The translations under genes and the position numbers were made by a program. A DNA stretch of 58,091 bases from Candidatus Aminicenantes bacterium UBA647 (GTDB taxonomy: Bacteria; Acidobacteriota; Aminicenantia; UBA2199): positions 1 to 58,091 of the forward strand of contig DBOL01000055.1 of the NCBI GenBank assembly GCA_002299555.1, given 5' to 3'. Of the stretch, positions 34,536 through 46,816 are shown one piece after another. Each line of letters opens with the position of its first letter. The stretch's first letter is position 1. The notes below the pieces were generated by a model, which saw nothing but the letters and a program-made list of their open reading frames with translations, did no database searches and had not been told where the DNA came from.

Positions 34536-34638
34536 GGTTTTATAATAATATAGACAGGACTATTTTTAAACATTTTTTACTTTTTTTTCATTAGAAAATA
34601 TGTTAATATTTTTTTACTCTGGAATGTTCATAATATAT

Positions 34639-34711
34639 GCGCCCGTGGCTCAAAGGATAGAGCGTCTGCCTCCGGAGCAGAAGGTTGCAGGTTCAATTCC
34701 TGCCGGGCGTG
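34639..34711 (+). tRNA. tRNA-Arg (anticodon CCG), CCA not encoded
   Basis: Acceptor stem GCGCCCG/CGGGCGT, anticodon arm TCTGC-CTCCGGA-GCAGA, T-arm GCAGG-TTCAATT-CCTGC. Confidence 0.97.
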
Positions 34712-34758
34712 TTTTGCTTGAAACTGATTCAGGGTAAATGATATAAAAGGAGATTTTA

Positions 34759-35891: not shown

Positions 35892-37901
35892 TTATTCCTC
35901 TATTGCTTTCAATGGGATATTTACCATCACGAACCCCAATGCAATTATAACTGCTGTACTGATAATAAATGGTGATCCATCCCATAAATTAGGCACTATG
36001 ACATCAAAAAAAGCGAGAGCAGCAAATAATAATCCCATTAAAGCTTCCCCTGCAATCAATCCAGATGCAAGTAGCACTCCCCTGTTATCAATATAAGAGA
36101 TCTGCTTTTTTGAATATTTCCTCCTCGCAATAATCATATCCACAATCCATCTGATCAGCCCACCCGCAAATATCGCAGCAACTGTTTCGAATGAGAGGTA
36201 CATTCCAACGCAAACAAGCATCGGACTCTTTATCTTAACCAGGATAAATCCGAAAGCCATAATGATTCCCACAATAACAAGAGGCCAGACCATTTCTCCA
36301 CCTACTATCCCTTTTGATAGTTTCGCCATTAGGCCTGCCTGGGGAGCAGCAAGAACATCTCCACCGAAACCCCCTTTATATCCATTAAGTTCTGCCATTT
36401 TCAGATCTCCTGCATTCAGTATGAAAAGTGGTATCCACATTGCCAGGGCAGAAATAATAACCCCAATAAAATCACCAACCTGCATTTTCCAGGGAGTTCC
36501 TCCCAGTATATATCCTACTTTCATCTCCTGAAGAGCAGCTCCTGCAACAGCAGCACTGACACAGATAATTCCTGCACCGGCAAGAACAATAATGACCCCC
36601 TGATCTCCGCTGATACCGATCATCAGCAAAATAAAAGATGTTATAACAATTGAAGTTATCGTTATTCCCGATACAGGGTTATTGGAAGATCCGATAACTC
36701 CAACAAGGTATCCGGAGAGAGTTGCAAAAAAGAAACCTGCGATCATTAGTACTAATGCAACAATCAGAGCGGGAATGAAGCTTTCATCTTTAAATCCCAT
36801 GAACCACCAGAACATAACAAAAACAAATGCCGATAAGAGAAAAATTCCGGATATAACAGTTAGTATTCCAATATCTTTTTCAGTTCTTTTTACTATTTTG
36901 GGAATTGATGAAGTTTTTTCAATATCTTCATCCGGCTTCCTGATACCGTTAAAAATTTTTTTTCTCAATCCGTAAAGAGTATAGGCGGCACTCATAAGCA
37001 TTCCGCCGATGGCAATCGGTTTTACAATATTTGAGAAAACACTTTTTGAAATATCCGACCAGGTCATAACTCCGTCACTGACTAAAGGAGAATATTGAGG
37101 ACCAAGGATCAATATCAGGAGGGGAACGAATAAACCCCAGGAAAGAACTCCTCCCGCAAAATTCAATGCTGCCAGTTTTGGCCCGATTATATATCCGACT
37201 CCCAAAAATGCAGGGCTCAGAGCAGGAGACTTCAGCAAAAACCCCCCACCTGTCTCAATTCCCTTAAATTTTTCCATACTTGTTCCGGGAATTATCTTCT
37301 TCGCAAAAGGTAAAAATTTCTCCCATTTAGGAGAAAGTATATGGAAACTTTTAAGAAATTCTATTACACCCCCTACTCCCATCGCAAAAAACAAATATTT
37401 TGCACCCGAAGTACCTTTTCTCCCTGCTTTATGAATTTCTGATGCAGCCACAGACTCGGGAAAAGGGAGAAGAGGGTCTTCGACCATAACTTTTCTCAAC
37501 AATGTTACAAAAAGGATCCCGGCAATTCCGCCTGCAAGCATTATTGCAGTTGATTTTAAATAGCCATCAAAACTTGCAAAAAATTCCGGCCCCCAGACAC
37601 CGGCAATATAGAAAGCGGGAATTGTAAATATTGCACCACCTGCAACAGCCTCACCTATTGATCCTATAGTCCTTAAAAAATTTTCTTCAAGTATGTTGCT
37701 TCCTTTCCTATGCCTCAGAAATTGTATACCCATGATCGCTGCCGGATAGGTTGCAGCGATTGTTATTCCTGATTTAAGTCCCAGATAAGCGTTAGAGAAT
37801 CCAAATAAGACAGCAAATATAATTCCTGTGAGTAGAGATCGCAGGGTAAATTCCCTCAAATTTTTTTCCGGAGCAATAAGGGGCTTATTCTGAATTTTCA
37901 T
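35892..37901 (-). CDS. OPT family oligopeptide transporter
   Basis: EFTLRS, NAYLGLKSG, ENFLRTIGS, LPFPES, GSSNNPVSG, LGGTPWKMQ, APQAGLM and ASGLIAGE. Confidence 0.95.
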   Translation of the reverse strand: MKIQNKPLIAPEKNLREFTLRSLLTGIIFAVLFGFSNAYLGLKSGITIAATYPAAIMGIQFLRHRKGSNILEENFLRTIGSIGEAVAGGAIFTIPAFYIAGVWGPEFFASFDGYLKSTAIMLAGGIAGILFVTLLRKVMVEDPLLPFPESVAASEIHKAGRKGTSGAKYLFFAMGVGGVIEFLKSFHILSPKWEKFLPFAKKIIPGTSMEKFKGIETGGGFLLKSPALSPAFLGVGYIIGPKLAALNFAGGVLSWGLFVPLLILILGPQYSPLVSDGVMTWSDISKSVFSNIVKPIAIGGMLMSAAYTLYGLRKKIFNGIRKPDEDIEKTSSIPKIVKRTEKDIGILTVISGIFLLSAFVFVMFWWFMGFKDESFIPALIVALVLMIAGFFFATLSGYLVGVIGSSNNPVSGITITSIVITSFILLMIGISGDQGVIIVLAGAGIICVSAAVAGAALQEMKVGYILGGTPWKMQVGDFIGVIISALAMWIPLFILNAGDLKMAELNGYKGGFGGDVLAAPQAGLMAKLSKGIVGGEMVWPLVIVGIIMAFGFILVKIKSPMLVCVGMYLSFETVAAIFAGGLIRWIVDMIIARRKYSKKQISYIDNRGVLLASGLIAGEALMGLLFAALAFFDVIVPNLWDGSPFIISTAVIIALGFVMVNIPLKAIEE

Positions 37902-38083
37902 AAAATTATCCTTTTCGGTAAAACATCGATACAATTATACAGAAAGGAAATAAATTTTATAATAGTTACTCTTATTAATTGCTTGACTAAATTTTATAAT
38001 AATCATAAAAACATAGTATGAATAAATTATCCGGATTTCAAATCCGATATTATTTAAAAACTATTATTCTGTAAGGAGTGACA

Positions 38084-41029
38084 ATGAAAAAAATCTTAAT
38101 AATATTTGTAATTTTTTTAATAACAATATCTTTATCTGCCGCTACACTTGATGATGCACTCAAAAGGATCCATCCTATCTGGGGAGAAGTTGACTGGATG
38201 ATAAGAGAAAAGGCATTTAAGATCAGGCAATCTCTTTTAGAGAACAGTCCTTTCAAAAGTATTCCATTTGAGAATGTTGGTCCGATGGCTCAGGGTGGCA
38301 GGATAATGGATCTTGCAATGGATGAAAGACTACCCACAACCTGGCTTGTCGCTTATGCAACAGGTGGTGTATGGATAACTCATGATGACGGACATAATTG
38401 GAAACCGATTTTCGAGAAACAGCCTTCTTTCAGTATCGGATCACTTGCAGTTGTATGGGGGAAACCCGGAGTTCCTGAAACTATCTGGGTAGGAACCGGG
38501 GAGCCTTCAAATACAAGAACTGTTTATATGGGAGCCGGATTATTCCGAAGTGATGACAAGGGGAATACCTGGACAAGAGCTGCTCTCCCGAATGCACATC
38601 ATATAGCAGATATAACCGTTCACCCGGGGAAAAAAGAGATCGTTTTTGTAGCGGCACTTGGCCCTGTTTATACTGATGGAGGGGAAAGAGGCCTTTATAG
38701 GACACTTGATAACGGTAAGACCTGGGATAAAGTGATCGAATGTCCGCCATTCACAGGAGCTGTTGAGGTGCTGATAGATCATAACGATACTAATATTGTC
38801 TATGCCTGCACGTGGGAAAGGCGCCGTAAAGCGTGGGATTTCAGAGAGAATGGCCCGGGAAGCGGCATATGGAAAAGTATTGATGGAGGGAAATCTTTTG
38901 ATCGTCTTTCAGGTGGCTTACCCAATGGAAAAGGGATGGGTAGGATCGGTCTTGCTCTGAGCTATCAAAATCCTGATCTTATCTACGCACTGATTGACAA
39001 TCAAAATCCAAGACCGATAAGTAAAGATAATCCTGAACCACTATTGGGAAAAGAATTTCTTGAGATCGCAAAAAAAGGGTTTCTGAAACTTTCAGACAAA
39101 AGGATTGATGATTTCCTCAGGCTATACAGTTTTCCGGGGAAACTTAACGCTGAATCTATCAGAAAAGATGAAAAGGATAAAAAATTCAATTTTGATGATA
39201 TGAAGAAACACATAAAGGGATTGGAGAATATCCCCTACTATTGGCCAAAATGTATAGGCCCTGAGTTATATGTAAGTTCTGATGCCGGAAAGACCTGGGG
39301 GAAAACACATAAGGCCGATCTTCGTGGACAGGTTGATTGGGGATATGGAACTGCAACGTACTATTTCGGCCGTATCGCTATTGACCCTTCAAATGATAAA
39401 CGTCTTATCCTTTGTGCTGTGCCACTTCTAAAAACAGAGGATGGAGGCAAAACCTTTGAGTATGCAGACAGAAACGGACATGATGTTCATGCTGATCACC
39501 ATGCTATCCTTTTTAACTCAAAAAATAGTAAAAGGATAATTCTTGGAAATGACGGAGGACTTAACCTCAGCCTCGATGGAGGAGTAAGCTGGAGACCTGT
39601 GAAGAACATACCTGTGGGACAAAGCTACACTGTAACCTTTGATATGTCTAAGCCCTACAGAATATTTACCGGACTTCAGGATAATGGTATCAGTATGGGA
39701 TTTAATAAGAAGATCAAACCTTTTCAGCAAATAGATAGTTGGAAAAATATCTGGGGTGCAGATGGAATGTTTATACAGGTCAATTTAAAGGATAATAATA
39801 CTGTGATCCTTGGTACTCAATTCGGTGCAATGTCACGCCTTGATCTTCACACAATGAAATCAAAAAGAATTCGACCTGAACCTGATTATCCTGAACAGAG
39901 AGCATTTCGGACAAATTGGGTTACACCAATCGTCATGAGCAAATTTCATCCTGATATTTTATACACCGGGACACAATTCGTTCACCGTTCATTTGATCGT
40001 GGAGACACATGGGAGGTAATAAGCCCTGAACTGACCAGTGAAGGACAGGAAGGATCATTCGTTAATATTGGTGGCAATATCTCTTATGGGAATCTATCGG
40101 CACTTGCTGAGAGTACTAAACGTTTCGGACTTATCTATGCAGGGACAGATGAAGGATGGCTTTGGATCACAAAAGATTCCGGTATGAACTGGGAAAGGCT
40201 CAGAAATGGGATTCCAGGGAATAAATGGGTAACTCGTATCGAACCCGGACTCCATAATGAGGCTCATGTTTTTGCTACTTTTACAGGGTTCCGTGAAAAT
40301 GATACAAAAGCATATGTTTACAAAAGTTTAGATTACGGACAGAGCTGGCATTCAATAAAGGGGAACCTGCCTGACGAATGTATGAATGTTATCCGACAGG
40401 ACCCGGTAAATCCAAACCTATTGTTCGTAGGAAGTGACTTTGGAGTTTACACAAGTCTCAACGGAGGGGAAGAGTGGAATGCACTTGGTGTAATGATACC
40501 CAATGTACCTGCATATGATATGTGCATCCAGCCAAGAGAAAAAGATCTTATAGTTGGTACTTACGGGCGTAGTGTATGGGTTGGATCCATTAAGATTCTA
40601 CAGGAATATACTGCAGATATAATGAAAAAAGAGATCCACCTGTTTAAAATTGCTAAACAGGTGCCGAAATGGTGGTGGGAGAAAGAGAAACCGGTCCAGG
40701 TTGGTAAACCGAGAGAGATTGAAAAGCTTAAAGTTTTCTTCCATTCAGACACTTCAGTTAATGTAAAAATATTCTTGAAAAATAATAAGAACAAAATACT
40801 AAAAAGCTGGGAACAGAAAGCAAAGGCCGGTATAAACAGACTTGATTGGGACTACCTTATCGATAGCAAATACAGGAAAAACCTTCCGGAAGGAAGAAGA
40901 CCATTCATACTTCCCGGGAAATACACCCTCGTTATAAGTTCAATGGGGAAATCATCAAAAACAGTATTAATAATTGACAAACCGGAGAAGAGAAAAAACT
41001 GGTGGTCAGAATCTAAAGAGTTACATTAA
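38084..41029 (+). CDS. Exported VPS10/BNR (Asp-box) repeat protein, glycosyl-hydrolase-like
   Basis: Signal peptide; many SxDxGxTW Asp-boxes; GPMAQGGRI and HADHH. Confidence 0.88.
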   Translation: MKKILIIFVIFLITISLSAATLDDALKRIHPIWGEVDWMIREKAFKIRQSLLENSPFKSIPFENVGPMAQGGRIMDLAMDERLPTTWLVAYATGGVWITHDDGHNWKPIFEKQPSFSIGSLAVVWGKPGVPETIWVGTGEPSNTRTVYMGAGLFRSDDKGNTWTRAALPNAHHIADITVHPGKKEIVFVAALGPVYTDGGERGLYRTLDNGKTWDKVIECPPFTGAVEVLIDHNDTNIVYACTWERRRKAWDFRENGPGSGIWKSIDGGKSFDRLSGGLPNGKGMGRIGLALSYQNPDLIYALIDNQNPRPISKDNPEPLLGKEFLEIAKKGFLKLSDKRIDDFLRLYSFPGKLNAESIRKDEKDKKFNFDDMKKHIKGLENIPYYWPKCIGPELYVSSDAGKTWGKTHKADLRGQVDWGYGTATYYFGRIAIDPSNDKRLILCAVPLLKTEDGGKTFEYADRNGHDVHADHHAILFNSKNSKRIILGNDGGLNLSLDGGVSWRPVKNIPVGQSYTVTFDMSKPYRIFTGLQDNGISMGFNKKIKPFQQIDSWKNIWGADGMFIQVNLKDNNTVILGTQFGAMSRLDLHTMKSKRIRPEPDYPEQRAFRTNWVTPIVMSKFHPDILYTGTQFVHRSFDRGDTWEVISPELTSEGQEGSFVNIGGNISYGNLSALAESTKRFGLIYAGTDEGWLWITKDSGMNWERLRNGIPGNKWVTRIEPGLHNEAHVFATFTGFRENDTKAYVYKSLDYGQSWHSIKGNLPDECMNVIRQDPVNPNLLFVGSDFGVYTSLNGGEEWNALGVMIPNVPAYDMCIQPREKDLIVGTYGRSVWVGSIKILQEYTADIMKKEIHLFKIAKQVPKWWWEKEKPVQVGKPREIEKLKVFFHSDTSVNVKIFLKNNKNKILKSWEQKAKAGINRLDWDYLIDSKYRKNLPEGRRPFILPGKYTLVISSMGKSSKTVLIIDKPEKRKNWWSESKELH

Positions 41030-41040
41030 TTTATTATTAA

Positions 41041-42153
41041 TTAAGGAAGTTCTATCCTGTACTTTGACAGAATGACATTTCCATCTTCATCTTCTGTCCA
41101 GATATAGATGAAATCGCCTTCAATCTGGATGCCGTTAATAGTTCTGTCGTTATCAACACCGATCTTACTTCTGTACATAAACTTCCCGCTTTTATCATAA
41201 ATATCAATTACTCTGAGTGTATCGCTATCCGGATCAGATTCAAAAAGATATACATTCCCTTTTCTGTCAATATTAATATCAGAGAAGAAGGAGGCATTTT
41301 TTGGTAATCCATTTATAATATTATTTAATATATTTGCAGGAATATCTCCTAATCTAGTTTTAAGATTTTTTAAATATTTTTCTGATACCTTGTTCGGTTT
41401 TTTCTCCGGATTACTGAAATTGAAAAGCTTTTTTCCTTTAATATCACAAATTGTCAATTCATTCTTATTGTTCATTCCATAATATATCTTTTCATTGCTG
41501 TACCGTACCAGCATCATCGGAGTTATATCCCCTATGACTATCCCGACTGTCATTTGATTCCCTTTGCTCTCCTGAGTAACACTCGCTTTATCGAACGGTC
41601 TGAATGTTGCAATCTCGGTTTTTTCATCTGTTTTTAAGTTAAAGAGGATTATTTTTTCCGTCCCTTTCCCTCTTCTGTCTACAATCACAGGTGCAGATAT
41701 AAAAATGTCTTCATTCAAAAATTCCCTCGGCTTCAACCTTGGAGAGATTTTAATTGTTTTAATATAATGTCCATCAAGATCAAAATAATGAAGCATCGCT
41801 CTATCTGAAAAAATCAATTTATTTCCTACTATCTGGAGTAGATTTCCACCGAAATAATCCCTGATCTCACCCGGACCTTCCCCTTTTTTGCCAAAACTTT
41901 TAATAAAGTTCCCATCCTTATCAAAAATAAATATAAGGGAATTTTTCATATCGGCGACAAATATTTTTCCTGTTTTTGAGATTGCGATATTTTGAATATC
42001 CCCGAAGACATCTTTCCCGGCTGTATCTTTTTCCCAGATCAGTTTTTTATTAAAATCCCATTCCCCTTTAAATGGCTTATCCTGATTAACAACCTGCGAA
42101 AGCAAAATTATTCCTGAAATAAAAAATAAAATAATAAATGTGATTTTTTTCAT
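41041..42153 (-). CDS. Exported 6-bladed beta-propeller (NHL-like) protein
   Basis: Signal peptide and FDKDGNFIKSFGKKGEGPGEI. Confidence 0.85.
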   Translation of the reverse strand: MKKITFIILFFISGIILLSQVVNQDKPFKGEWDFNKKLIWEKDTAGKDVFGDIQNIAISKTGKIFVADMKNSLIFIFDKDGNFIKSFGKKGEGPGEIRDYFGGNLLQIVGNKLIFSDRAMLHYFDLDGHYIKTIKISPRLKPREFLNEDIFISAPVIVDRRGKGTEKIILFNLKTDEKTEIATFRPFDKASVTQESKGNQMTVGIVIGDITPMMLVRYSNEKIYYGMNNKNELTICDIKGKKLFNFSNPEKKPNKVSEKYLKNLKTRLGDIPANILNNIINGLPKNASFFSDINIDRKGNVYLFESDPDSDTLRVIDIYDKSGKFMYRSKIGVDNDRTINGIQIEGDFIYIWTEDEDGNVILSKYRIELP

Positions 42154-42207: not shown

Positions 42208-43455
42208 TCAGTTGCCGTATTTTCCTATTATCTCTTCTTTAGTTTTATTAAGTATATCGTACTTTTTCCCAACCTTAATAAAAGCGGCAAGAGCCTTCTC
42301 GAGATGTGTCATATCATGTGCGGCAGATAGTTGCGTTCTGATCCTTGCCTGCCCTTTAGCCACAACAGGAAAGAAAAATCCGATCGCATATATACCTTCT
42401 GAATACAGATCTTTAGCGAAATCCTGTGAAAGTTTTGCATTGAAGAGCATAACAGGAACAATCGGTGTTTCACCATCTTTGATAATAAATCCGGCATCGA
42501 TCAAACCTTTTCTCCAGAATTTTGTATTTACTTCGAGTTTATCTCTCCTTTCAGTTGAAGAAGAAACTATATCAATTACTTTGTTTGATGCAGCTACTAT
42601 AACCGGAGCAATAGAATTGGAAAAAAGGTAAGGCCTTGCTTTTTGCCTGCACATTTCAACAATCTCTTTTCTTCCGGACACACAACCACCTGATGCTCCG
42701 CCAAGAGCCTTACCAAGTGTAGTTGTAATTATATCTATCTTTCCGACCACATCGAAGTGCTCATGAGTTCCTCTACCTGTTTTCCCGATAAATCCACTTG
42801 AATGAGAATCATCTACAAAAACCAGAGCATTGTACTTTTCCGCAAGTTCAACTATTTTATCAAGTTTAGCAAGATCTCCATCCATTGAGAATGCACCATC
42901 AGTAACAATAAGTTTTAATCTTTTATCCTCATGGAGGATAAGTTTCTTCTCGAGATGATCCATATTTGAATGTTTATAAGTATCTGTCATCGCTTTGGCA
43001 AGTCTCATTCCGTCAACTATCGATGCATGGACAAGTCGATCTGCTATCATAACATCCTCTTCATTCATAAAAGCTTCAAATACTCCTGCATTTGCATCCA
43101 TACAGGATGGGAAAAGGATAGTATCCTCTGTTCCAAGAAATTTTGTAAGTTTATCTTCAAGTTCTTTATGAATATCCTGCGTTCCACAAATAAACCTGAC
43201 CGAAGACATCCCATATCCTCTATGGTCAAGTCCTTTTCTTGCTGCTTCCACTATTTCCGGATGAGATGATAGACCCAGATAATTGTTAGAACACATGTTA
43301 ATAACATTTTTCTCTTCAGTTCCGGAAGGAAAGATCACTTCTATTTCTGAATCCTGAGGTGCACAAATTATCCTCTCCTCTTTGAAAATACCATCCTTCT
43401 TAATGTTATCAAGTTCACTCTTCAGGTGTCCCTGTTCTTTTGTACTATATGCCAT
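42208..43455 (-). CDS. kbl: Glycine C-acetyltransferase (2-amino-3-ketobutyrate CoA ligase)
   Basis: SNNYLGL, GYGMSSVRFICGTQ, DDSH, TLGKALGG (PLP lysine) and RPYLFSN. Confidence 0.92.
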   Translation of the reverse strand: MAYSTKEQGHLKSELDNIKKDGIFKEERIICAPQDSEIEVIFPSGTEEKNVINMCSNNYLGLSSHPEIVEAARKGLDHRGYGMSSVRFICGTQDIHKELEDKLTKFLGTEDTILFPSCMDANAGVFEAFMNEEDVMIADRLVHASIVDGMRLAKAMTDTYKHSNMDHLEKKLILHEDKRLKLIVTDGAFSMDGDLAKLDKIVELAEKYNALVFVDDSHSSGFIGKTGRGTHEHFDVVGKIDIITTTLGKALGGASGGCVSGRKEIVEMCRQKARPYLFSNSIAPVIVAASNKVIDIVSSSTERRDKLEVNTKFWRKGLIDAGFIIKDGETPIVPVMLFNAKLSQDFAKDLYSEGIYAIGFFFPVVAKGQARIRTQLSAAHDMTHLEKALAAFIKVGKKYDILNKTKEEIIGKYGN

Positions 43456-43464
43456 TATTGTCTC

Positions 43465-43713
43465 CTACACTACATTAAATTCTTTCAACAGAACTAAGAT
43501 ATTATCAACTGAATCAAAGGCATCCGGAGTTGCTTTTGCATCCGGTATCTGTATTTTGTATTTTGTCTCAAGAAATCTTTTTAAAGATACCATTGAAAAA
43601 GAGTCAACAATTCCCCCTGTGATAAGAGGTGAACTGAAATCAAGTTCCATATCTTCATCTTCAAGATATTCTTCTTTAATATAATCTAAAATAACTTCTT
43701 TAATACCACTCAT
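43465..43713 (-). CDS. Acyl carrier protein
   Basis: Acidic 82-aa protein with GIVDSFSM phosphopantetheine-serine motif. Confidence 0.9.
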   Translation of the reverse strand: MSGIKEVILDYIKEEYLEDEDMELDFSSPLITGGIVDSFSMVSLKRFLETKYKIQIPDAKATPDAFDSVDNILVLLKEFNVV

Positions 43714-43748
43714 TTTATTCTCCTTTATAAACGTATTATTAATATCTT

Positions 43749-45452
43749 CTAATCATCTTCAAGTGTTGAAGTATCGCCTATTTCTTCACCCCACTCTTTT
43801 GCCCTGAGCATACGTCTCATTATTTTTCCACTCCTCGTCTTTGGTAGTGAATCAACAAATTCGACATCCTGCGGCATTGCAAGTGGTGATAATTTCTTTC
43901 GGATAAAATTCATTATTTCCAGTTCCAGCATATCAGAAGCCTCAACTCCCGGTTTCAACGCTATGAACGCCTTGACTACTTCCATATTTACAGGATCTGG
44001 TTTTCCGACAACTGCGGATTCAGCAACTGATTCATGCTCTAATAATGCAGATTCAATTTCAAAGGGCCCGACAAGATGGCCCCCGGTATTTATAACATCA
44101 TCATCACGGCCTACAAACCAGTAATATCCATCCTCATCAATACTGGCCCTGTCACCACAAACATACCAGCCATTAATAAATTTGCTGTTATATGTTTTTT
44201 CATTATTCCAATAAGCTCTGAACATTGAAGGCCATCCGGGCTTTAATGCTATAAGTCCGACAACTCCTCTCTTCTCTATCGGCTCATGAGTTTTAAGGTC
44301 CAGCACGGTTGCTTCTATTCCCGGAAATGGCTTACCCATCGAACCCGGCTTTATCTCCATCCCCGGATAATTAGTAATAACCATACTTCCGGTCTCAGTC
44401 TGCCAGAATGTATCATGAAATGTAAGTCCGTACGTATCTGTTGACCACAATACAGCTTCAGCATTCAGTGGTTCACCGACACTGCACAAATGCCTTAGTG
44501 AAGATAGGTCAAACTTTTCAACCTCAGATTTACCCTCTTTCATAAGCGCCCTTATAGCTGTCGGAGCGGAATACCAGACCGTTATCTTTTGATCTTCTAT
44601 GAATCTGTACCAATTCTCAGCCTTAAATCCCGAATCAAGAACACATTGAGTTATTCCGTTTGACCAGGGACCTATGATCCCATAGGATGTTCCTGTAACC
44701 CAACCCGGATCAGCAGTACACCAATATATATCATCATCCTTTAAGTCAAGAACATATTTTGATGAAATATATTGCGAAATAAGAGAATAATGGACATGTT
44801 GAGCCCCTTTCGGCTGTCCGGTAGTACCTGAAGTATAATGTAATACAGATGGCGTTTCCGCTTTTGATCTGAAAACATCAAATTTTTCAATTTTTTCAGA
44901 ATCTTCCATTGAAAAAGCTATCTCACGTTCTTGCAAGGGTTTTTTTCCATCGTAATCAACTACAATGATATATTCAAGTCCGGGAAGTTCATCACGGATC
45001 TTTCTCACTTTCCCAAGATGTTTTTTCTGAGTAATTATCGCTTTTGTTTCAGCATCCTCCAATCTTGTAATAAGAGATTCTCCGCCAAAAGCACTGAAAA
45101 GCGGTTGAGCTATACCACCCATTTTCAGTATACCTAGAAATCCGAAATAAAGCTCAGGGATCTTATCCATAAAAAGGCATACTCTATCGCCATTTTCAAC
45201 TCCGGTCTTCTGAAGAAATGATGCCATCGTGTTAGTGATGATACGGCTGTCATTGAAAGTAAATTTCTTAACTTCACCTGAAAATCCCTGCCATATGAGA
45301 GCAACTTTTTCTCCTTTCCCCTGATCACATATCCTGTCGGAACAATACCATCCTATATTTATATCGTCCCCATCTTTATAACCAAGCTCATTTTCAGATA
45401 TATTCCAATTGAATTTTTTCCTGATCTCATCATAAGGTCCCATGTTGTTCAT
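43749..45452 (-). CDS. acsA: Acetate--CoA ligase-type adenylating enzyme
   Basis: YTSGTTGQPKG, WCTADPGWVTG, SVGEPLN, FWQTETG and PKTRSGKIMRR. Confidence 0.88.
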   Translation of the reverse strand: MNNMGPYDEIRKKFNWNISENELGYKDGDDINIGWYCSDRICDQGKGEKVALIWQGFSGEVKKFTFNDSRIITNTMASFLQKTGVENGDRVCLFMDKIPELYFGFLGILKMGGIAQPLFSAFGGESLITRLEDAETKAIITQKKHLGKVRKIRDELPGLEYIIVVDYDGKKPLQEREIAFSMEDSEKIEKFDVFRSKAETPSVLHYTSGTTGQPKGAQHVHYSLISQYISSKYVLDLKDDDIYWCTADPGWVTGTSYGIIGPWSNGITQCVLDSGFKAENWYRFIEDQKITVWYSAPTAIRALMKEGKSEVEKFDLSSLRHLCSVGEPLNAEAVLWSTDTYGLTFHDTFWQTETGSMVITNYPGMEIKPGSMGKPFPGIEATVLDLKTHEPIEKRGVVGLIALKPGWPSMFRAYWNNEKTYNSKFINGWYVCGDRASIDEDGYYWFVGRDDDVINTGGHLVGPFEIESALLEHESVAESAVVGKPDPVNMEVVKAFIALKPGVEASDMLELEIMNFIRKKLSPLAMPQDVEFVDSLPKTRSGKIMRRMLRAKEWGEEIGDTSTLEDD

Positions 45453-45480: not shown

Positions 45481-45545
45481 TTGATAGTATTGAATATCAA
45501 TGAAAATTAATAATAATTTATAGAGTATACCCCCATAAAAGTCAA
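45481..45545 (-). promoter_or_regulatory. acs-acp-kbl promoter TTGACT-17-TATAAA plus downstream inverted repeat TTGATA-N8-TATCAA
   Basis: -35 at 45545-45540, -10 at 45522-45517, inverted repeat at 45481-45500. Confidence 0.55.
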
Positions 45546-45578: not shown

Positions 45579-46706
45579 TTATTTTATGACACTTCCGGAA
45601 ATTTTTTCACTTTTTTTAATTCTATACAAAACAATTTCTGAATTTGATAGAAATCTCATTGGAGGGCCCCATACACCCGTACCGGAGGAAGTATAGATAA
45701 AAGAATTTCCTGATCTGTAAAGTCCGTATGGATATTTGTAAACAAGCTGAACTAAAAGGTCCATTGGGGGAATCTGGCCTGCGTGAGTGTGACCTGCCAT
45801 TTGAAGGTCTATCCCCTTTTCCCCATTTTTTTTTATTCCATAAGGCCTGTGACCGATAAGGATATTAAACTTTAATAAGTTCAAGTCATTTAAAATATCC
45901 GCATTGTAACTCGATCTTTTTGATCCGGAGGAAGTATGATCCTTCATTCCAAAGAGAGAAATATTTTCAGTAATATTCACATGCTCGTCATTAAGTATCT
46001 TTATCCCGGTTTTTAAGGCAAGTTCTTTGAAAACCTCAAGGCCTGAATAGTACTCATGATTACCGGTAATGGCATAAACACCATTCTTTGACTTAAGTTT
46101 TTTTAATATGAGGTTGATAGAACTTTTCTCATTAATTCTGCCATCAATAAGGTCTCCGGTTATGACTATAAGGTCCGGAGATAGTTTATTTATCCTTTCA
46201 ACAATCTGTTTTATTGATTCCGGATCTGTAGATTCATCAATATGAACATCTGACAATTGTAATATTTTGTATTCTCCGGACACACCTAATGATTTTGTTG
46301 TTAATATTTCAATTTCTCTGAGAACCGGATCCTTCATATTGTTTATAAACGAGTAGATTGATATAAGTAATGATATAACAATTGCTGACACAACGATTAT
46401 CTCTGATACGGATGGTATAATCACTTTCAGCAGAGTTGCAACTAAGAATACTGCAAAAGTAATTGAGATTAATCCGAGCCAAACATAGCCGTAATGTTTA
46501 ACAAAATGAACATTAAGCATCCGGCTGAGCATTTGCCCTGCAATGATAGAAAAAGCAGAGAGGATGAATATCCACTTTATCCATTGCAAAATTTTAACGG
46601 TCAGGCTGAGGTTTCTTGATATCGTCTGAAATACAAAATAATGTATTCCGAACATTACTCCGGAAAAAACTATAAAAAATACTATAAATGAAATTAATCT
46701 TCCCAT
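45579..46706 (-). CDS. Membrane-anchored metallophosphoesterase (YkuE-like)
   Basis: SDVH, GDLIDG, GNHEY, GHRP and GHTHAGQ; 4 N-terminal TM helices. Confidence 0.93.
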   Translation of the reverse strand: MGRLISFIVFFIVFSGVMFGIHYFVFQTISRNLSLTVKILQWIKWIFILSAFSIIAGQMLSRMLNVHFVKHYGYVWLGLISITFAVFLVATLLKVIIPSVSEIIVVSAIVISLLISIYSFINNMKDPVLREIEILTTKSLGVSGEYKILQLSDVHIDESTDPESIKQIVERINKLSPDLIVITGDLIDGRINEKSSINLILKKLKSKNGVYAITGNHEYYSGLEVFKELALKTGIKILNDEHVNITENISLFGMKDHTSSGSKRSSYNADILNDLNLLKFNILIGHRPYGIKKNGEKGIDLQMAGHTHAGQIPPMDLLVQLVYKYPYGLYRSGNSFIYTSSGTGVWGPPMRFLSNSEIVLYRIKKSEKISGSVIK

Positions 46707-46816
46707 AATTTGAAGTTCATTATAGCTTATACTGAGGCTTTTGAAAATAATTAAACTTAGAACTTTTCTTTTTCTGAAAAAGATTATATACTTCAAAAAA
46801 AAAACAGGAGACATAA

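Follow-up and report, generated by a model that had tools for sequence, protein, structure and literature searches.

A conserved gene unit of ligase, carrier protein and Kbl paralog suggests a carrier-dependent glycine C-acetyltransferase reaction in Aminicenantes and other bacteria

Two kinds of described systems are closest to the genes treated here. In the AasR/AcpR/Spt systems of Caulobacter crescentus, Sphingomonas wittichii and Escherichia coli B a specialised AMP-ligase acylates only its own carrier protein, and the clustered alpha-oxoamine synthase prefers the acylated carrier over acyl-coenzyme A (acyl-CoA) (PMC9386255). In the Tdh-Kbl node (E. coli kbl-tdh; 1FC4, 7V58) the canonical Kbl works with free CoA and acetyl-CoA and needs neither a carrier protein nor a ligase. 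A unit of three genes which extends both kinds is found in a contig of Candidatus Aminicenantes bacterium UBA647 (DBOL01000055.1; the whole stretch of 58,091 nucleotides that was analysed is called the window in the following). It encodes an AMP-forming ligase of the AcsA type, a small carrier protein and Kbl1, a paralog of glycine C-acetyltransferase (Kbl), and is referred to as the triad. The most economical and most likely reading of its chemistry is the reaction acetyl-S-carrier + glycine <-> 2-amino-3-oxobutanoate + HS-carrier, with the ligase tying the carrier to free acetate. That the triad performs such a carrier protein-dependent Kbl reaction and runs it toward acetate loading and condensation is the interpretation we prefer, with a probability of roughly 0.4. 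What the analysis established is the order of the genes and their conservation, the specialisation of the paralogs, the fold of the carrier, an acetate-type pocket, intact catalytic residues and linkage to AcpS and tdh. That the carrier takes over from CoA, that its cargo is acetate and which way the flux runs are inferred.

The three open reading frames (ORFs) are all located on the minus strand, with gaps of 35 nucleotides between ligase and carrier and of 9 nucleotides between carrier and Kbl1. The ligase (43749-45452, minus strand, 567 amino acids) is a predicted acetate:[carrier protein] ligase according to its profile, its structure match and the residues of its clade. The dedicated carrier protein (43465-43713, minus strand, 82 amino acids, isoelectric point 4.2) was assigned from carrier matches in the Protein Data Bank (PDB), the fold of a model and invariant columns, and Kbl1 (42208-43455, minus strand, 415 amino acids), the carrier-linked paralog of glycine C-acetyltransferase, from profiles, a tree and a residue alignment. 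An initial annotation of this DNA had described three co-oriented genes with the same gaps, a ligase with the tryptophan signature of short-chain acetyl-CoA synthetases (Acs), a DSF motif in the carrier, and a pyridoxal phosphate (PLP) enzyme of the Kbl type rather than of the serine palmitoyltransferase (SPT) or BioF type. Orientation and gaps were confirmed from the ORF coordinates, the two motifs are present as DTFWQTETG and VDSFSM, respectively, and the profile scores given below agree with the Kbl type.

The triad and AasR/AcpR/Spt have the same kinds of components, i.e. a ligase, a dedicated carrier and an alpha-oxoamine synthase encoded in a cluster. In AasR/AcpR/Spt, however, the ligase resembles FadD and is of the long-chain type, the synthase uses serine and decarboxylates, and the product goes into sphingolipid synthesis, whereas the triad has an AcsA-type ligase with an acetate pocket and a Kbl-type synthase, for which glycine and no decarboxylation are expected, is without accompanying lipid genes and occurs in other host phyla. 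With the Tdh-Kbl node the triad shares the intermediate 2-amino-3-oxobutanoate and a synthase that is 53% identical to the Kbl of E. coli and keeps the catalytic residues. A Tdh is encoded in the host genome away from the triad, and in some genomes beside it. Unlike canonical Kbl, Kbl1 forms a separate clade with two clade-invariant changes and a C-terminal tail. The short AcsA enzymes (B. subtilis AcsA, 9G79; NF003313) resemble the triad ligase in the acetate pocket, the hinge aspartate and the catalytic lysine and differ from it in the residue at position Arg526, and the gene of the triad ligase is always found with the carrier. Free-standing adenylating enzymes with a small dedicated carrier are also known as DltA/DltC, PltF/PltL and PigI/PigG, the carriers of which are structurally closest to that of the triad (TM 0.76-0.83). 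These pairs handle amino acids for the cell wall or for pigments, whereas the predicted cargo of the triad is acetate and the consumer a PLP enzyme.

The occurrence of the unit was examined by a scan for carrier relatives in one genome per species, which yielded 181 stretches; the locus counts given here refer to the best 80 of these 181. In the 80 loci the carrier is 60-93% identical to the window carrier. A Kbl-type gene directly follows it in 78 of them, and the ligase is found upstream inside the fetched locus in 62, the rest being mostly contig ends or loci with a few inserted genes. This three-gene arrangement is far beyond chance, and carrier and Kbl1 are the most constant pair of the triad. 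The initial annotation had named the absence of the carrier from homologous clusters as the finding that would speak against it, and the survey found the carrier in its place. Among the labels of the loci are Aminicenantes/Acidobacteriota, Ignavibacteria, Zixibacteria, Cloacimonadota, Calditrichota, Eisenbacteria, Gemmatimonadota, Omnitrophota, Chloroflexota and Myxococcales, and the carrier-Kbl1 unit spans at least eight phylum labels. In the class to which the window belongs the carrier is present in 102 of 151 genomes, and a ligase ortholog (at least 67% identity) is restricted to carrier-positive genomes, with none in the carrier-negative families. Public annotation names the three proteins 'acetate--CoA ligase', 'acyl carrier protein' and 'glycine C-acetyltransferase', and full-text literature searches gave no description of a carrier-dependent Kbl or of this unit. 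The triad is a real and widely conserved unit, shared by many phyla of uncultured bacteria, which is apparently undescribed.

Clustering of 684 adjoining ORFs showed that, besides lineage-specific genes, the only metabolically meaningful recurrent companions are AcpS, Tdh and Kbl2, a second Kbl of the canonical type. No further conserved pathway gene which could name the downstream route emerged from this clustering, and neither a reductase nor an acyltransferase nor any other gene for lipids is a repeated neighbour of the triad in the 80 loci. Kbl2 immediately follows Kbl1 in about 25 loci. A tdh of the Zn type lies directly upstream of the ligase in two loci (L012, L037), in an apparent operon with the triad, and nearby, not directly adjoining, in four more (L008, L043, L046, L047). 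In L058, L064, L071 and L078, and according to the class survey also in L081-83, L085 and L086, the ligase gene is immediately preceded by that for AcpS, which shares an operon with it in at least nine loci. Two ligase-carrier pairs without Kbl1 (L040, L052) were inspected for another consumer of the carrier and had unrelated genes beside them; L078 is broken by masked sequence. Fusion proteins of ligase and carrier, suggested by long open frames, were dismissed as the fetched loci show separate genes; the frames result from read-through in stop-poor, high-GC sequence.

The ligase contains two AMP-binding domains of Pfam (PF00501 and PF13193) and passes the equivalog NF003313 for AcsA-type acetate-CoA ligases with 770 bits (cut-off 729). 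The nearest solved structure is the AcsA entry 9G79 of the B. subtilis type with 572 amino acids (E 3e-167), which matches over the full length with 561 bits. In an alignment with Salmonella enterica Acs, the numbering of which is used here, all residues of the acetate pocket (V310, T311, V386) and the gate W414, contained in the motif DTFWQTETG, are present in the ligase, as are the hinge residue D517, G524 and the catalytic K609. Pocket, gate and catalytic lysine (V310, T311, V386, W414, K609) are kept in all 52 carrier-linked ligases. Invariant differences between these 52 and four canonical Acs are confined to nine positions. Among them is Arg526, which is arginine in all four canonical enzymes and leucine in 52 of 52 carrier-linked ligases; the A8 motif of the window ligase accordingly reads GGHLVG and that of the clade GHLV. 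The long canonical Acs of one carrier-positive genome retains Arg526. In Acs this residue makes contact with the phosphate of the adenylate and stabilises the conformation in which the thioester is formed, and together with R191 and R584 it makes up the three conserved arginines of the CoA/thioester step (PMC10455477). The set is incomplete in the carrier-linked ligases, with R526 replaced by leucine and R584 kept, and R191 is uninformative because the respective segment is absent from AcsA-type enzymes.

For the carrier protein no Pfam family was found at E <= 0.001, and its best match in NCBIfam, the ornithine-lipid acyl carrier protein (ACP) model NF052616, is weak (54.6 bits, cut-off 130). 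The sequence link to known carriers came from the phmmer search of the PDB only, with 6cxt (6e-9) followed by PltL, PigG and DltC. An AlphaFold model built from 28 orthologs has the carrier fold (pLDDT 86.9), and the top 50 structures found by Foldseek are nearly all carrier proteins or carrier-containing complexes, led by PigG with a TM of 0.83 and a root mean square deviation of 1.6. Phosphopantetheine is predicted to be attached to Ser38, which belongs to the invariant GIVDSFSMVSLK and lies where helix 2 begins, and 28 columns of the carrier alignment are invariant across phyla. Judged from the model, the protein looks like a phosphopantetheine carrier of the PigG/DltC kind. As the genome also encodes a normal AcpP (contig C53, 63% identical to E. 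coli AcpP), the window carrier is an additional, dedicated one.

Kbl1 passes both Kbl equivalogs (TIGR01822 / NF005394) with 575.7 vs 460 and 571.9 vs 493 bits. It stays below the cut-off for bioF (356.7 vs 426 bits in NCBIfam), yields 327, 269 and 218 bits on SPT models with cut-offs of 500-670, and fails the ALAS and CqsA models too. The residues N50, H136, S185, D210, H213, T241, K244 (the PLP lysine) and R368 do not vary among the 57 Kbl1 and the 26 canonical sequences compared. In a maximum likelihood tree of 87 sequences, which included Kbl2 and four solved Kbls, the carrier-adjacent Kbl1 form one clade (57 rows, SH-aLRT 99, stem 0.54) apart from Kbl2 and the solved enzymes. The Kbl2 of the host genome (contig C4, 613 bits, above the cut-off) is nearer to E. 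coli Kbl than Kbl1 is (504 vs 454 bits). Two changes, F112M and N135V, the latter beside the PLP-stacking histidine, are invariant in the Kbl1 clade (E. coli numbering). Another conserved feature of Kbl1 is a C-terminal tail of 15 amino acids (ILxKTKxxIIxxYG) with two lysines, a candidate docking surface for the acidic carrier. By their sequences all three proteins of the triad thus look specialised.

In the mechanism we favour AcpS would turn the 82 amino acid protein into its holo form. The AcsA-like ligase would adenylate acetate and then acetylate the phosphopantetheine thiol of the carrier, and not, or not only, CoA. Kbl1 would then join acetyl-S-carrier and glycine to 2-amino-3-oxobutanoate and free holo-carrier, and Tdh, encoded on another contig here and within the operon of the triad in some other genomes, could reduce this product to threonine, or Kbl2 could cleave it. 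In contrast to the CoA pool, which is shared, a private carrier could be kept almost fully acetylated at the expense of ATP and could in this way drive the otherwise unfavourable condensation. Genes for tdh, a phosphopantetheinyl transferase, a second kbl and a second acs had been proposed for a search of the genome. The first three were found, with Tdh on contig C104 (478 bits, cut-off 458, unlinked to the triad), AcpS on C52 and the Kbl2 described above; a second Acs is absent from the contigs of the host genome. The earlier proposal that an acetate ligase and a Kbl are coupled by a carrier, in analogy to ligase-ACP-SPT clusters, fits the conservation, the specialised clades, the linkage of AcpS and tdh, the fold and the separate AcpP. 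Its extension to threonine synthesis as a replacement pathway is unsupported: the threonine synthase gene thrC is commoner in carrier-positive genomes of the class (about 80 of 102) than in carrier-negative ones (23 of 49), and a general role of the triad in place of threonine synthase was rejected on these counts. Within the own genus of the window (with G000, G016, G045, G067, G073 and G099) the triad is present in seven of seven genomes, as is Tdh (one copy truncated), and thrC is absent from six of the seven and from six of nine triad genomes. No threonine synthase above E 1e-35 was found in these six genomes of the genus, and the best thrC-like gene of the host genome is a threonine/serine dehydratase on contig C82. 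The absence of thrC could mean that these bacteria are auxotrophic, or that the triad is used anabolically in this group.

Several points weigh against loading and condensation. Both enzymes exceed the cut-offs of CoA-dependent families, and Arg584, which contacts the 3'-phosphate of CoA, as well as Arg194 are kept in all 52 ligase copies, so the ligase may still use CoA. As thrC is present in most carrier-positive genomes a second threonine route seems unneeded. Known Tdh-Kbl pathways run toward cleavage, and a Kbl1 that condenses next to a co-transcribed Kbl2 that cleaves would form a cycle without obvious gain. Searches with TIGR00692 and an Ignavibacterial Tdh as queries gave no association of Zn-type Tdh with the carrier, as it occurs in families with and without the carrier, SDR-type (short-chain dehydrogenase/reductase) Tdh not having been queried. 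Zn-type Tdh is absent from the carrier-positive families f3, f7, f10, f11 and f13, where the SDR type was likewise not queried. In genus g7 carrier and Kbl1, or carrier, Kbl1 and Kbl2, occur without an AcsA-like ligase (L091 in contig C15 of G055, L092 in contig C52 of G077), and the genomes hold a long canonical Acs with the motifs SGHRIG and DTWWQTETG on another contig.

The strongest alternative, which we regard as possible and less probable than loading and condensation, is flux in the reverse direction. Tdh would oxidise threonine and Kbl1 would cleave the product with the thiol of the holo-carrier to glycine and acetyl-S-carrier. The ligase would then work backwards and convert acetyl-S-carrier, AMP and pyrophosphate (PPi) to acetate, ATP and carrier, which would save more energy than Pta-AckA, and the private carrier could stay highly acetylated and so drive the formation of ATP. 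This direction would avoid the cycle of Kbl1 and Kbl2, and it agrees with the presence of thrC in most carrier-positive genomes and of Tdh in the host genome above its cut-off. To our knowledge every Kbl studied so far is catabolic, and reversal of an AMP-forming Acs has reportedly been seen in Syntrophus aciditrophicus. A membrane H+-pyrophosphatase, found in 14 of 15 triad genomes and 4 of 14 control genomes, fits an economy based on PPi, and together with the six loci that have tdh in or near the unit it is compatible with cleavage and ATP formation. On the other side, we know of no adenylating enzyme that unloads a carrier protein for ATP, and all ligase-carrier pairs known to us load their carrier. 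A missing Pta-AckA was considered as a reason for ligase reversal and given up, as AckA was found in 13 of 15 triad genomes and on contig C42 of the host genome. An ordinary ATP-yielding route for acetate therefore already exists, which leaves reversal without obvious need and argues mildly against it. The carrier-positive families named above, in which Zn-type Tdh is absent and the SDR type was not queried, also speak against the reverse route. On balance we lean toward loading and condensation. If the reverse direction were true the ligase would be the first adenylating enzyme that unloads a carrier to make ATP.

A few genomes fit neither direction in a simple way. In three genomes that are each complete on a single contig (G096, G135, G139), Kbl1 is the sole Kbl and a Zn-type Tdh is missing, and genus g7, with carrier, Kbl1 and Kbl2 and without the ligase, equally agrees with neither simple flux picture. 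In another genome without Zn-type Tdh (G074) a YdfG-like short-chain dehydrogenase is encoded 2.7 kb upstream of Kbl2 (L094:1318-2163). YdfG of E. coli oxidises L-allo-threonine, and the YdfG-like enzyme is a possible alternative source of 2-amino-3-oxobutanoate.

It is rather unlikely that ligase and Kbl1 are ordinary CoA enzymes and that the small protein has some other task, be it in regulation, as a chaperone-like partner or in serving an unrelated enzyme encoded elsewhere as its carrier. The curated cut-offs passed by both enzymes, the retained Arg584, Arg194 and catalytic residues, and the failure of the carrier to match Pfam would agree with this, and the supply of acetyl-CoA may depend on the ligase, as it is the sole Acs-like gene of the host and of most carrier-positive genomes. 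Such a reading is hard to reconcile with a carrier conserved to 60-93% across phyla and placed between the two enzymes at almost all loci, with a ligase ortholog confined to carrier-positive genomes, and with invariant clade-specific changes in both enzymes. A canonical Kbl2 is present as well in 11 of 15 triad genomes checked, and AcpS shares the operon in several lineages. The start of a lipid or small-metabolite pathway, sphingoid-base-like or aminolipid, with a longer or other acyl group and Kbl1 as a decarboxylating alpha-oxoamine synthase, is very improbable, as the layout like that of AasR/AcpR/Spt (PMC9386255) and the weak ornithine-lipid match of the carrier are outweighed by the invariant acetate pocket with its Trp414 gate, SPT, BioF and CqsA scores far under their cut-offs, the lack of recurrent lipid genes in the 80 loci and a separate SPT-like enzyme on contig C83 of the host genome.

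Because of the names in public annotation, the triad is taken for ordinary CoA enzymes when the metabolism of Aminicenantes, Ignavibacteria, Zixibacteria, Cloacimonadota and their relatives is reconstructed. If the carrier does replace CoA, a textbook reaction has a protein-bound variant, and the only Acs-like enzyme of many triad genomes may make no acetyl-CoA. Private thioester pools, known for long-chain sphingolipid starters, would then extend to central C2 and amino acid metabolism. Since a carrier pool is insulated from CoA its acetylation state could be set far from that of CoA. It is conceivable, though doubtful, that a private acetyl-carrier pool replaces acetyl-CoA in a widespread, unrecognised C2 branch, where it would enable either an ATP-driven synthesis of 2-amino-3-oxobutanoate/threonine out of acetate and glycine or, when threonine is broken down, a substrate-level formation of ATP from AMP and PPi on the carrier.

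The SPT-like enzyme of the host genome is a third alpha-oxoamine synthase of 393 amino acids (C83:39928-41109, minus strand). Its best match is the model for serine palmitoyltransferase of the Bacteroidota type, with 546 bits and a cut-off of 640, a hint that this Aminicenantes genome encodes chemistry akin to that of sphingolipids or sulfonolipids.

Each of the three genes of the triad is preceded by a strong Shine-Dalgarno sequence (AGGAGG, AAGGAG and TAGGAG). A possible sigma-70-like promoter of the whole unit (TTGACT, 17 nucleotides, TATAAA; 45517-45545, minus strand) ends 65 nucleotides before the start codon of the ligase; it was matched to the consensus by eye and is not among the sites reported by the scan. 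Within the two short intergenic gaps of the triad the terminator scan gave no terminator-like site, and its two matches at 42922-42942 (plus strand) and 42475-42463 (minus strand) are both within the coding sequence of kbl1. No riboswitch or other known RNA was found upstream of the operon in the window and in 25 diverse loci. The sole tRNA of the window, and its sole Rfam match, is a tRNA-Arg(CCG) at 34638-34712 (plus strand).

Upstream of the ligase, at a distance of 126 nucleotides and in the same orientation, a membrane-anchored calcineurin-like phosphoesterase with weak similarity to LpxG/YaeI is encoded (45579-46814, minus strand). It was considered as a fourth member of the unit and is probably outside it, because its synteny is limited to the closest relatives (L003-5, L017, L051). 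On the other side the triad is flanked by a six-bladed beta-propeller protein of the DUF5128 family (41041-42153, minus strand), which has paralogs on contigs C55 and C50, and by a secreted BNR/sortilin-Vps10-like protein of 983 amino acids (38078-41029, plus strand). A multi-pass membrane protein of 680 amino acids (35892-37934, minus strand) looks like a protein of the oligopeptide transporter type, and close relatives also have members of its family (family 9) near the triad.

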